From an uncultured archaeon (lineage in GTDB: Archaea; Asgardarchaeota; Lokiarchaeia; Sigyniarchaeales; SOKP01), in assembly GCA_964388035.1 (NCBI GenBank), contig CAYLZE010000059.1, positions 1 through 30,923 of the forward strand: 30,923 nt of DNA, read 5' to 3'. The notes under the pieces were generated by a model. That model searched no databases, was not told the DNA's origin, and saw only the letters and a list, made by a program, of their open reading frames with translations. Below are positions 5,036 through 29,781 of this stretch, in pieces. Made by a program: the position numbers and the translations under genes. Position 1 is the first letter of the stretch. Each line of letters begins with the position of its first letter.

Positions 5036-6466
5036 ATGACTTATGATATAGAGAATAAAATCTCCGTGCATATTGGACTTTTCGGTCACATTGATTCTGG
5101 TAAGACAGCAGTAGCGGAAGTGCTTTCAGAGATTATTTCCACTGCAGGTATTGATGCTCATCCCCAAAGCAAGGAACGTGGAATTACTATTGATTTGGGC
5201 TTTACTAGTTTCATTGTAGGGGATTATCTCATCACTTTAGTGGATGGACCGGGGCATGCAGACTTGATAAAGATCAGTGCATCTTCGGTTGAAATTATTG
5301 ATTGTGCCTTGATTGTTATAGACATTAATAAGGGACCACAAATCCAAACCGGAGAACATCTTATCATGATTGAAGCCCTGAAAATAAGAAAAGTTATCAT
5401 TATTTTAAATAAAGTTGATTTATTTAAGGGTAATCTTAAAGAGGAAGAAAAGCGTATCAGGAATTTTTTTAAATCCACCTCATTTGGTGAAAATATCCCA
5501 ATTTATCCCGTATCGGCCAAGAAAAAAATAGGTTTTGAACAATTAAAGGAGGGAATTTATGATGTTATTAAAACTTTGAAAATAAATAGGGATGTGGAGG
5601 GAGATTTGGTGATTCCCGTGGATCATTATTTCAACATCAAGGGAATGGGAACCATTTTAACCGGAACGATATTAAGGGGGGAATTGAGGATTAATCAATC
5701 TATAGTGATCCTGCCTTTAAATATAGCCACTCGAGTTAAAAACATCCAAATTTTTCATCAAAATGTGGACAAAGCAAAAGCCGGAGATCGAGTGGGAGTT
5801 AATTTAAAAAGTGTGGATGTAAAAAAACTTTATAGAGGGTGTTATCTCACCTCTAACCCGGATGCATTTGAATTTTGCTCCGTAATTGAAGTTTCTATTG
5901 CAAAAAATTCATTATTCAAGCCTGAAATTCGATTTGGCAGTCAAATTCACTTGACCATAGGAATGCTTACTGTCGCGGGAAATATATATCCTTATGAAAT
6001 AAAAGATGAAAAACGGATGAAAAAAGATATAATCACTGAAGTTCAAAATTTTTCCGCCATTCTCTGGTTGCACGACAATGTCTTAATTAACAAGCAGAAA
6101 AGCACTTTCTTAATTAGCAGGCTAGATCTCCCTCCTACCACTCTCCGAATCATGGGAGCCGCAGAATTAAAACAAATTTTTCAAGAACCACCTCTATTTT
6201 ATCGTTATAAAATTAAAAAAGGGAAAATACTCAATCCTGACCATCCCCAGGGGATAGTATGTAGTGGATTAGCAAAGAGCGTGGAGGGGGCAAAGAAAAT
6301 AATAGGGAAGAAATTAGAACCTCCATTCACGAAAATCTTAGATTCATTCGGCACAAAAGGGCAAGTAATTGTAGGTATAGGAGATGTGAGCAAGAAAGTC
6401 AATAAAGGAGATCTTGTCGAACTTAAGGAATTATTTTATTTTCAATTAAAAAAATTTAAATCTTGA
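5036..6466 (+). CDS. selB: Selenocysteine-specific translation elongation factor SelB/eEFSec (archaeal-eukaryal type)
   Basis: G1 GHIDSGKT, switch I STAGIDAHPQSKERGITIDLGF, G3 DGPGH, G4 NKVD. Domain II 'DHYFNIKGMGTILTGT', domain III 'RLDLPPTTLRI', and a short domain IV ending 'SFGTKG'. 476 aa, with no bacterial winged-helix tail. Confidence 0.88.
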   Translation: MTYDIENKISVHIGLFGHIDSGKTAVAEVLSEIISTAGIDAHPQSKERGITIDLGFTSFIVGDYLITLVDGPGHADLIKISASSVEIIDCALIVIDINKGPQIQTGEHLIMIEALKIRKVIIILNKVDLFKGNLKEEEKRIRNFFKSTSFGENIPIYPVSAKKKIGFEQLKEGIYDVIKTLKINRDVEGDLVIPVDHYFNIKGMGTILTGTILRGELRINQSIVILPLNIATRVKNIQIFHQNVDKAKAGDRVGVNLKSVDVKKLYRGCYLTSNPDAFEFCSVIEVSIAKNSLFKPEIRFGSQIHLTIGMLTVAGNIYPYEIKDEKRMKKDIITEVQNFSAILWLHDNVLINKQKSTFLISRLDLPPTTLRIMGAAELKQIFQEPPLFYRYKIKKGKILNPDHPQGIVCSGLAKSVEGAKKIIGKKLEPPFTKILDSFGTKGQVIVGIGDVSKKVNKGDLVELKELFYFQLKKFKS

Positions 6467-10143: not shown

Positions 10144-10412
10144 TTTTTCTATAACCTTTTTTGAAATTATTGTGGATTTCTTTTTATTTAATTAAAAAAA
10201 AGCATGAATATTAATTCAATTAATCTTAAAATGATCCTAAATTAATACTTTTCTGAGATTATGAAGAAAAGTGAAATTAACTGATTCAATCAAAATCCTG
10301 CAAAAAATTATCTCTAATTTAATCCAAATTTTATCATTTAAAAAAGCTAATTGAATCTTAAATTATAATATTGTTAAATTCTTTCTAATCGACGTGTATA
10401 GAAAGAAAAGAA

Positions 10413-10627
10413 TGGTCCATCGGGGAATTTCAGTACATCCGTTATCCAGATCCTACATTTGAACCCCGGCTCTCGGGTTTGCCTCGATCCAGGACAAATT
10501 TTTTTCCATGTATGTCCGGTGTCTTATAAGACCCGCGCTTGTTGGCCAAGCGATTGCTTACCCGTTAACCATTTCAGATAAGGAATTACCTTTACAAGGT
10601 TTCCTTGATTGGCTGAGCTAATGGACC
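10413..10627 (-). tRNA. tRNA-Ile(UAU) with four introns: 10572-10610 (39 nt, D-loop 17/17a), 10541-10565 (25 nt, 21/22), 10480-10524 (45 nt, 37/38), 10427-10457 (31 nt, 59/60)
   Basis: Spliced by hand: GGTCCAT TA GCTC AGCCTGGTTA AAGC G CGGGT CT-TAT-AA ACCCG AGAGC CGGGG TTCAAAT CCCCG ATGGACC A (75 nt). Acceptor stem (7 bp), anticodon stem (5 bp) and T-stem (5 bp) are perfect. C4-G69 and A73 fit Ile. BHB central helices are TCAG/CTGA, TGGT/GCCA and TTCA/TGAA. The 37/38 helix is imperfect (CTTA/GAGG). Anticodon at 10526-10528. Confidence 0.85.
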
Positions 10628-10650
10628 TGAGGGCCAAGTTTTCTATTTAA

Positions 10651-10658
10651 TTTTAAAA
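10651..10658 (-). promoter_or_regulatory. Candidate TATA box for the tRNA-Ile gene
   Basis: TTTTAAAA lies 24-31 nt upstream of G1. The AT-rich background limits specificity. Confidence 0.35.
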
Positions 10659-10878: not shown

Positions 10879-11328
10879 ATGGCTGAAATGTTAACGGATC
10901 TTTTGCAGAACATTTATAATCGCATTTCCCAGTTAGGAATGAGCATACAGAGTTTAAAGCAATCCTTAGACGAATTAAATAAGAATATAGAATCTCAAAT
11001 TACCAGTTTAACGGGTAAAATGGGAGAGTTCTCAAAAGAGATTGAAATAACTCAAACAAAACACGTAAATACCATGAAAGAGATAGGAGATAGCGTGACA
11101 ATGGAATTAAAAGAAATTGAACAAGATATCGGATTAGAAGCGTTTAAAGAATTAATTGGAAAATTAGAAGGGTTCTCCCAAATCGCGGAAGAGGTACTTA
11201 ATCAAGAGAATGTCAATTTATTATTATCTGAGGCTATTAATTCTGTAAAAGAAATGAAGGAAACTCTTAGACAAGGACCGATTCCCGTTAATGCAGAAAA
11301 AAAGGAGGAGAGCGAGCAGGATGGCTGA
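10879..11328 (+). CDS. Hypothetical coiled-coil protein A
   Basis: 149 aa, all-helical heptad pattern, acidic tail, GGAGGAG upstream of the ATG. Confidence 0.8.
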   Translation: MAEMLTDLLQNIYNRISQLGMSIQSLKQSLDELNKNIESQITSLTGKMGEFSKEIEITQTKHVNTMKEIGDSVTMELKEIEQDIGLEAFKELIGKLEGFSQIAEEVLNQENVNLLLSEAINSVKEMKETLRQGPIPVNAEKKEESEQDG

Positions 11329-14770: not shown

Positions 14771-15844
14771 TTGAACATGGAAGACAGTTTAAAAATTGAC
14801 GCAGCTTTTGGCGAAGGAGGGGGATCGATCTTACGGTTAAGCGTGGCCTTTTCCGTGTTATTTCAAAAACCCATCCAGCTTTTTAATATTCGAGCAAAAC
14901 GCTCAAAGCCGGGCTTAAGATTACAGCATCTCTTGGGTATTAAAACTCTTGCAAAATTAACAAATAGCAAACTGAGCAAATGCGGAGTGGGTACTACGGA
15001 ATTAACCTTTATACCCGGCATAAATTCAAGTATAAATAATTACCTTGAAGTAGAAATAGATACGGCTGCAAGTTTAGGGTTATTAATACAACCCATTCAG
15101 ATTGCCAGTCTTGGATTTCATGAACCAGAAAAGATTGAGATTTTACTAAAAGGAGGAGGAACTTTTGGAAAATGGGCTCCAAGTATTAGTTATTTAGCAA
15201 ATGTGACGAATGAACTATTTAAAAGAAGTGGATTGCGAACAGAAATTGAAGTAGAGCGCCATGGATTTTATCCTAAAGGAGGTGCTTTGGTTAAAGTCAA
15301 GATTTTTCCTCCACAAGGTGACTTGAAACCCCTTACATTAACAGAATTAGGGGAAACGGAAGTGATTAAAGGAGAAATCATATGTTCCACTCATTTAAGG
15401 AAACCCCAGGTGGCACAAAGAATTAAAGAATCAGCCACCAAGTACCTATCTAAAAAGGTGAAGAATAAAATGGAAATTATTTTTGATTATGTCCCGTCAT
15501 TTAGCACGGGAGTGGGTCTTACATTATGGAGCCAAACAAGCACGGGTGCAATTATTTCCAGTGGAACTATCTTGGGGGAAAAAGGACTATCCTCTGAAGA
15601 AATAGGGAAAATAGCAGTAAACGAGCTGTTAAAATACATTCATCACAATATTCCCGTGGATAATTACCTTAGTGATCAGCTAATCCCATTAATGGCTTAT
15701 GTAAGGGAGAGCTCTTGCATTAAAGTATTGGAAATAACTAGTCACGCAAAAACAAATATGGATCTTCTTAAATTATTCCTACCTCGTGAAAGCATAATAG
15801 TGAGAGAAGATGAAGGATATCTAATAAATTACCCTAAAATCTAA
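14771..15844 (+). CDS. rtcA: RNA 3'-terminal phosphate cyclase (start TTG 14771 or ATG 14777)
   Basis: GEGGGSILR, NIRAKRSKPGLRLQH, GFYPKGG, VDNYLSDQL, and the catalytic His in TSHAKTN. Confidence 0.93.
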   Translation: MNMEDSLKIDAAFGEGGGSILRLSVAFSVLFQKPIQLFNIRAKRSKPGLRLQHLLGIKTLAKLTNSKLSKCGVGTTELTFIPGINSSINNYLEVEIDTAASLGLLIQPIQIASLGFHEPEKIEILLKGGGTFGKWAPSISYLANVTNELFKRSGLRTEIEVERHGFYPKGGALVKVKIFPPQGDLKPLTLTELGETEVIKGEIICSTHLRKPQVAQRIKESATKYLSKKVKNKMEIIFDYVPSFSTGVGLTLWSQTSTGAIISSGTILGEKGLSSEEIGKIAVNELLKYIHHNIPVDNYLSDQLIPLMAYVRESSCIKVLEITSHAKTNMDLLKLFLPRESIIVREDEGYLINYPKI

Positions 15845-28343: not shown

Positions 28344-28673
28344 AAGCGAATAATTTTGATATTCTTTCATCAGCATCTTTTTATACGTTTTTGGATGAAG
28401 TTTTGATCTTCTTAGCTTTAATTCAGTAGGAATGTCTAAGAAACTGTCCAAATCAAACGCAGCTAAGGTAAGGACAATCAAATTTGAAATTGTCGTGTAA
28501 TGTTCTCGTGAATTTTTATAGAGATATAAATTAGAAACTAATTTAGTTAATAATTGGAATTTAATTTTATGCAACTCCTTTTTTTCAAAGATAATTTGCT
28601 GAGATTGAAAGTTGAGATGATTATCTATGAAATCAATATAATTGTGCTCTTCATATAATTCTTGTTCAGACAT
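28335..28673 (-). CDS. Hypothetical protein
   Basis: 112-aa ORF convergent with the P-loop gene and overlapping it by 9 nt. No motif recognised. Confidence 0.5.
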   Translation of the reverse strand: MSEQELYEEHNYIDFIDNHLNFQSQQIIFEKKELHKIKFQLLTKLVSNLYLYKNSREHYTTISNLIVLTLAAFDLDSFLDIPTELKLRRSKLHPKTYKKMLMKEYQNYSLLD

Positions 28674-28941
28674 TATTTTGTAGCATGAGTATTCCTTTTT
28701 TATTTAGAACAAAAAGTAGGATTATTTGTAAAAAGAAGTAATATGTGTATATATTAACTGTGTTAGCATGTAAATAGAAGGATGGAAGTGGGGAGCAATT
28801 TCATATCATAATCATTAAATTCTTTTTCCAAACCCAGATATGAAATTTTCTGGTATTTTGGAATGATTATAGAATATAAGGTAAATAATTAAAATTATCT
28901 CTAATTGAATGATAGGTAATAAATTACATTTATGAATTGAC

Positions 28942-29781
28942 ATGACAAGTTTAAAGAATAAAACTTTATTTATAACAGGGGCGAGCCGGGGTATTGGAAA
29001 ATGCATTGGATTAAGGGCTGCAAGAGAAGGGGCAAATATAGTTATAGTCGCAAAAACTGCAGAGCCCCATCCAAAATTGCCAGGAACGGTGTATACATCT
29101 GCAGAGGACATGAAGAAAGCGGGAGGAAGGGCATTACCGTGCGTTGCTGATATTCGTTTTGAAGATCAAGTTCAAGCGGCAGTAAAAGATGCTGTAAATG
29201 AATTTGGAGGTATAGATATTGTAATAAATGATGCAAGTGCCATTAGCTTAACACCTACATTAGAAACATCGATGAAAGGATTTGATCTAATGTTTTCTGT
29301 TAATGTTCGTGGAACATTTTTATGTTCGAAATTATGTATTCCTTATTTAAAAAAAGCGGAAAATGCTCATATTTTAAATCTTTCTCCACCCTTAAATCTT
29401 GATCCTAAATGGTTTCAACATAATTTAGCTTATACAATGTCTAAATATGGAATGAGCATGTGCGTGTTAGGCATGGCGGAAGAGTTTCGAAAGGATGGAA
29501 TTGCTGTGAACGCATTATGGCCTCGAACGTCCATTGCTACCTCTGCAGTAAAAAATTTATTGGGCGGAGAGACTGCAATGAAACATTCGAGAAAACCAGA
29601 AATTGTTGCAGATGCGGCTTATTTCATTCTTACCAAACCAAGTAGGGAATGCACCGGCAATTTCTTTATAGACGATGAGGTGTTAATGGAGAATGGTATC
29701 GCGGATCTGAGTAAATATTCATCTGTTCCCGATGCCAAGTTAATCCCCGATTTTTTCCTTTATGGAGGCGGAGAAACCTAA
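28942..29781 (+). CDS. SDR oxidoreductase, HSDL2-like
   Basis: FITGASRGIG, 'AKTAEPHPKLPGT', 'HILNLSPPL', YTMSKYGMS, 'NALWPRT', 'TGNFFIDDEVL'. Confidence 0.93.
   Translation: MTSLKNKTLFITGASRGIGKCIGLRAAREGANIVIVAKTAEPHPKLPGTVYTSAEDMKKAGGRALPCVADIRFEDQVQAAVKDAVNEFGGIDIVINDASAISLTPTLETSMKGFDLMFSVNVRGTFLCSKLCIPYLKKAENAHILNLSPPLNLDPKWFQHNLAYTMSKYGMSMCVLGMAEEFRKDGIAVNALWPRTSIATSAVKNLLGGETAMKHSRKPEIVADAAYFILTKPSRECTGNFFIDDEVLMENGIADLSKYSSVPDAKLIPDFFLYGGGET

Follow-up and report, generated by a model that had tools for sequence, protein, structure and literature searches.

Structure of the tRNA gene and of its introns

The minus strand of the window (by which we mean the whole stretch of DNA analysed here, 30,923 nt) carries a complete tRNA gene whose five exons are separated by four introns (Table 1). 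The gene starts with an acceptor strand followed by the textbook succession U8-A9-GCUC-AG, and its last bases are those of the complementary acceptor strand and A73. Upon removal of all four introns by script, a product of 75 nt was obtained, which forms a perfect cloverleaf and is called tRNA-Ile(tat) by ARAGORN. Its acceptor stem is GGUCCAU/AUGGACC, hence a C4-G69 pair, with A73 as discriminator; its anticodon stem is CGGGU/ACCCG, and the loop runs C32 U33 U34 A35 U36 A37, then the intron, then A38. The canonical features of a class I tRNA are found, namely a 7-bp acceptor stem, A14, G18 and G19, a 5-bp anticodon stem, a 7-nt loop with U33, and a T arm made of a 5-bp stem and a UUCRANY-type loop.

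This minus-strand reading bears out an earlier note on the same DNA, which had described a loop CT-TAT-A^A in a stem CGGGT/ACCCG with U34 at 10528, a C4-G69 pair together with A73, a 45-nt intron with the hairpin GGACA/TGTCC, and an imperfect bulge-helix-bulge helix, C-G, U-G, U-A and A.G, in which three of the four positions do pair. The anticodon is genuinely UAU, as the note had it: it is the one called by ARAGORN after splicing, and it is invariant in the family.

Table 1. Coordinates of the tRNA-Ile(UAU) gene and of its elements in the window, listed in the direction of transcription.
Feature	Position	Strand	Description	Basis
TATA-like A+T-rich box	10644-10658	minus	centre ~24 nt upstream of G1; likely archaeal promoter	position only
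tRNA-Ile(UAU) gene, complete	10413-10627	minus	215 nt, five exons and four introns; G1 at 10627, discriminator A73 at 10413; CCA not encoded	read directly
Exon 1	10611-10627	minus	positions 1-17: acceptor 5' strand, U8 A9, D-stem 5' strand, D-loop bases one to four	continuous D arm in intron-free homologues L031 and L091
Intron 1	10572-10610	minus	39 nt, D-loop, 3' of position 17; central helix UCAG/CUGA, 4/4 pairs, 3-nt bulges on both sides	
Exon 2	10566-10571	minus	6-nt micro-exon UGGUUA with G18 and G19	
Intron 2	10541-10565	minus	25 nt, site 21/22; central helix UGGU/GCCA, 4/4 pairs including one G-U	
Exon 3	10525-10540	minus	D-stem 3' strand, G26, anticodon-stem 5' strand, loop 32-37	spliced product
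Anticodon	10526-10528	minus	U34 at 10528, A35 at 10527, U36 at 10526	invariant in 25 distinct mature sequences
Intron 3	10480-10524	minus	45 nt, canonical 37/38 site; relaxed motif, central helix C-G, U-G, U-A, A.G (3/4 pairs)	
Intron 3 elements	10523-10521; 10517-10513 / 10496-10492; 10511-10509	minus	GAC; hairpin GGACA / UGUCC; loop ACA	
Exon 4	10458-10479	minus	A38, anticodon-stem 3' strand, variable loop, T-stem 5' strand, T-loop to position 59	
Intron 4	10427-10457	minus	31 nt, T-loop, site 59/60; central helix UUCA/UGAA, 4/4 pairs	
Exon 5	10413-10426	minus	U60, T-stem 3' strand, acceptor 3' strand, A73	
Pyrimidine/T-rich run	10401-10412	minus	immediately 3' of A73; likely transcription stop	inference

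The exon joins were resolved in two independent ways, from the bulge-helix-bulge motif at each join and from intron-lacking homologues of related genomes: relatives missing one or more introns read through at the same joins. The motifs conform to the archaeal bulge-helix-bulge, in which two 3-nt bulges containing the cut sites flank a 4-bp central helix, with all four pairs of the central helix formed for introns 1, 2 and 4, and three out of four for intron 3, a situation defined as "relaxed" in a recent preprint (bioRxiv 10.64898/2026.10.13.758758). At exon 4, the junction can be moved by one base, and the product is unchanged. The transcript would be spliced at these four junctions. Two genes with an EndA domain are present in the genome, and this would fit a broad-specificity enzyme accepting motifs of the D-loop, the anticodon loop and the T-loop. 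The window also encodes, 4 kb from the tRNA gene, the RNA 3'-terminal phosphate cyclase RtcA (RTC and RTC_insert domains, positions 14771-15844, plus strand), possibly connected with the healing of RNA ends or with ligation.

Introns are unequally distributed among 30 distinct genes of the family: intron 1 is present in 8 of them, intron 2 in 26 and intron 4 in 13, and, alone among the four, the 37/38 intron is found in all 30. Only 4 genes, including that of the window, have the four introns together. The end of intron 2, GCUUGGYCAAC, is conserved across the family, and its central helix accounts for only part of this conservation. Together with the exon bases AAGC (10537-10540), this intron end can form a perfect hairpin resembling a D arm, possibly a decoy or a folding intermediate.

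On the unspliced window, neither ARAGORN nor Rfam (gathering and E-value thresholds) returned a tRNA match, because three introns in addition to the 37/38 one interrupt the gene. When only the 37/38 intron was left in the sequence, ARAGORN called a tRNA-Tyr(ata) with a 27-nt intron. Given that the 37/38 motif is imperfect, this call could suggest that other junctions are used, leading to a different anticodon or isotype such as tRNA-Tyr(AUA). Yet such a tRNA would keep 18 intron bases and need an unmodified A34, and the call disregards the geometry of the bulge-helix-bulge. Moreover, archaeal tRNA-Tyr is identified by a C1-G72 pair, and the pair found here is G1-C72. In most family members, a run of A permits cuts at 37/38 or at 38/39, but both give the loop CUUAUAA. 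The tRNA-Tyr(ata) call on the partly spliced gene was therefore discarded as an artefact of retained intron bases and ignored geometry, and we consider the use of other junctions very unlikely.

Conservation of the gene within its family

We then asked how widely the gene is shared among relatives. By BLAST of the locus, it was present in all of about 60 genomes of the same family (61/61), and each of the 30 best BLAST loci carried it. A 16-nt pattern was also defined, consisting of the D-stem 3' strand, the anticodon-stem 5' strand and the loop containing UAU. In 122 of the 134 family genomes tested, this pattern was present once and only once; the sister family had it in 1 genome out of 14, and other Asgard families in none out of 251. 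Its reversed version, used as a control, gave 2 matches in 400 genomes. Being single-copy in 122/134 family genomes, the pattern is far above what chance produces in this control.

For a covariation check, 42 parsed loci were reduced to 25 distinct mature sequences. Standard pairs were found at every stem position in all 25, with the exception of 13:22, and eight pairs (2:71, 3:70, 4:69, 6:67, 7:66, 28:42, 49:65 and 50:64) showed two-sided, compensatory changes. UAU, A37 and A73 did not vary. At the level of sequence comparison, this demonstrates that the cloverleaf, together with UAU, A37 and A73, is under purifying selection.

These data bear on the most trivial explanation of the locus, namely that position 34 owes its T to an error of assembly or reading, or to a private mutation, the gene being in reality a tRNA-Ile2(CAU), or else that the gene is a decaying pseudogene. 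The genome being a metagenome-assembled genome (MAG) with 7.3% contamination, such accidents are conceivable. However, the same UAU is found in the 122 independent family assemblies mentioned above and in other families, all stems are maintained by compensatory changes, and no TiaS was found that could modify a C34 (see below). Comparative conservation therefore rules out read error, private mutation and pseudogene alike, and we give this explanation practically no credence.

Outside the family, we examined the UAU tRNA genes L133 (genome G053, family f21) and L139 (genome G001, family f3), which both encode CCA after A73. They also possess the 37/38 intron, and in place of the T-loop intron they carry one in the variable region or around the T stem. 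Intron sites in f21 and f3 are thus unlike those of the window's family: positions differ between families, and the anticodon intron is common to these three.

Use and meaning of AUA codons in the host genome

The window belongs to a MAG of 5.47 Mb in 211 contigs, estimated to be 96.7% complete. It contains a gene for archaeal SelB (aSelB domain III, positions 5036-6466, plus strand); the organism therefore probably uses selenocysteine. The nearest relatives of this aSelB, 63-73% identical, are encoded by MAGs labelled Promethearchaeota, the current NCBI name of the former Lokiarchaeota within the Asgard kingdom, in agreement with the archaeal, and more precisely Asgard, host proposed in the earlier note. 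Two contigs, C197 and C204, contain strikingly G+C-rich, bacterial-looking stretches, compared with a G+C content of ~33% for the host, and these fit the contamination estimate.

ATA makes up 28.6% of isoleucine codons in the open reading frames of the window, where it had indeed been reported as common, and 27.4% genome-wide. Among 2049 long open reading frames, AUA reaches 26.6 per 1000 codons, which makes it the tenth commonest codon, above AUG. Its meaning was estimated by aligning the 18 AUA positions of the window's aSelB with 18 homologues, only non-AUA codons of the homologues being counted, against circularity. These positions correspond to Ile (58%), Val (13%) and Leu (11%), and Met is absent from the six commonest partners. 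AUU and AUC positions of the same gene have a similar profile, with 61% and 62% Ile, respectively. Judging from these sequences, AUA is a frequent isoleucine codon that needs an efficient reader.

It might be argued that AUA has been reassigned, the UAU tRNA carrying another amino acid, for instance Met as in mitochondria. We found no point in support of this proposal, and the aSelB profile, in which AUA, like AUU and AUC and in equal proportions, faces Ile, Val and Leu in the homologues, speaks against it, as do A73 and A37, which fit Ile. Its probability appears to us close to nil. The UAU tRNA would be charged with isoleucine, as suggested indirectly by the alignment of AUA positions with Ile and by the presence of A73, A37 and A38.

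Search for the agmatidine route in the host genome

The earlier note had called for a search of tiaS. None was found in the host genome, at 96.7% completeness of the assembly, either with the ferredoxin-like domain TiaS_FLD (PF08489), which matches in four archaeal control genomes, or with a full-length Asgard TiaS of 439 aa (identified as such by NCBIfam TiaS, E = 6e-143), whose best hit had E = 0.74. The same held for all members of the window's family that were sampled (0/40, see below).

We also looked for the other component of the route, tRNA-Ile2(CAU). Six scripted scans across the genome, looking for tRNA structures with a CAU, GAU or UAU anticodon, recovered the UAU gene, a tRNA-Ile(GAU) and the initiator tRNA. 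The latter was the only CAU gene located, by scans that are not exhaustive for CAU genes, since the elongator tRNA-Met was never recovered either. The number of tRNA genes detectable in the 5.47 Mb is small, 22 with ARAGORN allowing introns and 19 with Rfam, and a Rfam search of five TiaS-less genomes gave 17-32 tRNAs each. As the elongator tRNA-Met could not be found and few tRNAs were detected, most tRNA genes must carry non-canonical introns. The tRNA-Ile(GAU) gene (contig C27, minus strand, script index 10944-11099, 155 nt) has three introns, in the D-loop, at 37/38 and in the T-loop, an AUCGA T-loop, and an acceptor stem unrelated to that of the UAU tRNA.

A second reader of AUA could therefore coexist with a genuine UAU tRNA, in the form of an intron-hidden tRNA-Ile2(CAU) modified by an enzyme other than TiaS. 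Scans that missed even the elongator tRNA-Met may let intron-rich CAU genes escape, and standard tools detect only 19-22 tRNAs. Against this, TiaS is missing in 77/77 genomes from seven families, where its absence goes together with the presence of UAU, and the archaea known to possess tRNA-Ile3(UAU) lack tRNA-Ile2 (PMC8450103). We regard a hidden tRNA-Ile2(CAU) as improbable. The UAU tRNA is the only candidate AUA reader that was found, and the lack of TiaS leads us to infer that the tRNA-Ile2(CAU) gene is absent from the genome.

Distribution of TiaS and of UAU tRNAs among Asgard families

The survey was extended to 200 genomes of the phylum, 77 from families that proved to be TiaS-less and 123 from other families. 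TiaS was detected in 111 genomes, all from the second group (111/123). In the seven TiaS-less families, it was found in none of the 77 genomes sampled, the figures being 0/40 for the window's family and 0/3, 0/4, 0/19, 0/3, 0/5 and 0/3 for the six others.

On the same sample, a slightly looser version of the UAU pattern matched in 47/77 genomes of the TiaS-less families, compared to 2/123 in TiaS-bearing families, both doubtful. One of these two lies inside a coding sequence and was rejected as a chance match. The other (G137:C199:7276-7290, family f7) is a UAU sequence of family-f1 type, located on a short contig in a MAG whose family possesses TiaS; it is probably a contamination of the bin, and otherwise a transfer. 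In contrast, the matches in a 1.4 Mb, Odin-sized genome of f3 and in the f21 genome proved, when checked by eye, to be tRNA-Ile(UAU) genes with three introns. With the same kind of pattern, CAU tRNAs were found in five TiaS-bearing genomes, and a UAU tRNA was not. BLAST of these five genomes with an intron-poor homologue gave T-arm matches only, a search too insensitive across families.

UAU tRNAs being present in TiaS-less families and nearly absent from TiaS-bearing ones, the two characters are complementary at the family level. The agmatidine route is thus probably absent from the host genome, from its family and from several other Asgard families. Decoding by UAU without TiaS, as proposed in the earlier note, holds at the level of sequence, given a conserved UAU, a TiaS that was not found and a heavy use of AUA.

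Taken together, these results make it highly probable that the locus is a functional, single-copy, AUA-decoding tRNA gene of the tRNA-Ile3(UAU) kind, in a Loki-type Asgard archaeon. Transcription would start at the A+T-rich box and stop at the T-rich run that follows A73. The 215-nt transcript would then be cut by the splicing endonuclease at four bulge-helix-bulge motifs, the exons ligated and CCA added, and the 75-nt tRNA charged by IleRS. Its UAU anticodon would pair directly with AUA (U34-A), and the tRNA would in this way replace tRNA-Ile2(CAU) and its TiaS-made agmatidine.

A conserved element in the anticodon intron

The 37/38 intron of the UAU gene is the longest of those compared in the host genome, with 45 nt as against 22-38 nt for ten other 37/38 introns. 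It contains an ordered element, G-A/G-C(-N), directly abutting the 5' strand of an 8-bp hairpin, followed by one unpaired base and by ACA at the start of the loop. Among the 30 distinct family genes, the hairpin exists in 25 different covarying versions. The spacing from G to ACA is exactly 13 nt in 28/30 genes as well as in the f3 and f21 genes, and 12 nt in the gene of the window; one family gene has AAA in place of ACA. This layout was found in none of the ten other 37/38 introns examined in the host genome.

The GAC(C) of the element can base-pair with C32 and with the 3'-terminal bases of the anticodon-stem 5' strand. An alternative hairpin can thus form, with the anticodon in its loop, and when the arm is folded in isolation it has the minimum free energy in most family members. 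In the gene of the window, the normal anticodon stem wins over it. Two ideas about the intron were set aside. It lacks the traits of a box H/ACA guide RNA: there is no internal pocket, the ACA lies in an apical loop, not 3' of a lower stem, and Rfam gives no match. Neither does it appear to mimic a codon, by pairing of an AUA in the intron loop with the anticodon, as only ACA is conserved, and AUA is not.

The state of U34 matters for a tRNA that has to read AUA and not AUG. Elp3 is present in the genome (656 bits), and versions of tRNA-Ile with a U34 gain cnm5U in Haloarcula and Haloferax and bind both AUA and AUG (PMC3895270). With an Elp3 in the cell and such misreading by a C5-modified U34 in haloarchaea, U34 must stay in a form that rejects G. 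By analogy with known systems, two states of U34 seem to us equally possible, if neither is probable in itself: a pseudouridine made on the intron-containing precursor, to which the Elp3-type C5 group, responsible for the reading of G by U34, could not be added, or an unmodified U as in Mycoplasma mobile. The rest of the probability goes to some other state.

One more specific proposal, which we find rather doubtful, is that the anticodon intron carries a built-in signal for pseudouridylation of U34 before splicing, via Cbf5. It is drawn by analogy with the guide-independent formation of pseudouridine 55, during which archaeal Cbf5 anchors, via its PUA domain, on the T-stem/acceptor strand and on CCA (PMC2018633, PMC1616971). 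In the intron, a continuous helical strand of 12 nt followed by N and ACA would mimic the T-stem/acceptor 3' strand followed by N73 and CCA, and the alternative fold would place U34 as second base of the loop, at the place of U55. Several observations go against this proposal. The loop size varies from 6 to 8 nt, the would-be helix of the f3 and f21 genes has a C.A mismatch, the inner helix of the splice motif also requires the G and the A of the element, and the fixed spacing could be explained by shared ancestry. A search of the genome for an additional Pus1-like or Cbf5-like paralogue found none, only one Cbf5 gene and one TruA-family gene. The TruA/Pus1-family gene being in single copy, as in ordinary archaea, nothing points to a dedicated Pus1-like enzyme. 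On contig C23, a few hundred bases separate the single Cbf5 gene and a tRNA gene with an intron (28641-28764 and 29177-29518).

Still, an intron found in all 30 genes and in two distant families, with an element specific to this tRNA, keeps an intron-dependent modification, which the earlier note had suggested, alive as a hypothesis. Were the Cbf5 proposal true, an Asgard lineage would decode AUA by means of an intron-dependent pseudouridine, in analogy to eukaryotes but with Cbf5 as the enzyme.

Comparison with known systems

According to textbooks, archaea read AUA with TiaS-made agmatidine, apart from two odd exceptions. The present work adds a Loki-type family without TiaS and with a conserved UAU tRNA, and likewise at least five other Asgard families among those sampled (for two of them, on the basis of one genome each). 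The agmatidine system performs the same task, that is reading AUA and not AUG, but no TiaS match was found here, and five TiaS-bearing Asgard genomes gave CAU tRNAs in place of UAU. The findings also change the annotation of Asgard tRNA sets, as standard tools miss the UAU gene entirely, and they pose a concrete biochemical question, since Elp3-bearing cells must stop UAU from misreading AUG.

The closest precedents, already named in the earlier note, are Nanoarchaeum equitans and Candidatus Korarchaeum cryptofilum, where tRNA-Ile3(UAU) stands in place of tRNA-Ile2(CAU) (PMC8450103, PMC6000648, PMC3895270). As here, UAU is encoded in the genome and the agmatidine route is lacking, and the Korarchaeum gene also has an intron in the anticodon loop (PMC6000648). 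These are however single odd species, whereas here whole Asgard families are concerned, with four introns and a conserved element in the anticodon intron. A survey of 167 archaeal genomes, none of them Asgard, had found UAU only in these two species. We know of no report on the state of U34 in Nanoarchaeum, Korarchaeum or Asgard UAU tRNAs.

Among bacteria, Mycoplasma mobile and others that lack TilS compensate the loss of this C34-modifying enzyme with a tRNA-Ile(UAU) (PMC3575796, PMC3919564). The parallel is a UAU tRNA alongside a missing C34-modifying enzyme; unlike the present gene, the bacterial ones have no introns, their U34 was shown to be unmodified, and co-adaptations of IleRS and of the ribosome were shown.

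As for the splitting of the gene, tRNA genes with multiple introns have been described in Thermoproteales and in Atabey-, Frey- and Jordiarchaeia (PMC11291895; bioRxiv 10.64898/2026.10.13.758758, October 2026). They resemble the present one by their several bulge-helix-bulge introns, many of them in the D-arm, and by being missed by standard annotators. Neither publication mentions UAU, Ile or TiaS, and the window's family is Loki-type. A full-text literature search combining TiaS or UAU with Asgard terms found no report, so that an Asgard UAU tRNA-Ile seems to be unreported in the searchable literature.

In eukaryotes, pseudouridylation of the tRNA-Ile(UAU) depends on Pus1, whereas the Asgard host has one TruA/Pus1-family gene; eukaryotes also differ in using tRNA-Ile(IAU) as well. 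In their cytosolic tRNA-Ile(UAU), pseudouridines are present at both 34 and 36, and are made on the intron-containing precursor (PMC3895270, PMC6000648). The Asgard lineage, related to eukaryotes, shares with them the UAU anticodon and an always-kept intron adjoining it. This is a likeness in features, 75 nt being too short to trace a common descent. The lineage closest to eukaryotes would thus already use the eukaryotic AUA anticodon, beside an intron that is always retained, and with this combination, cultured Asgard archaea offer a way to test how eukaryotic AUA decoding arose.
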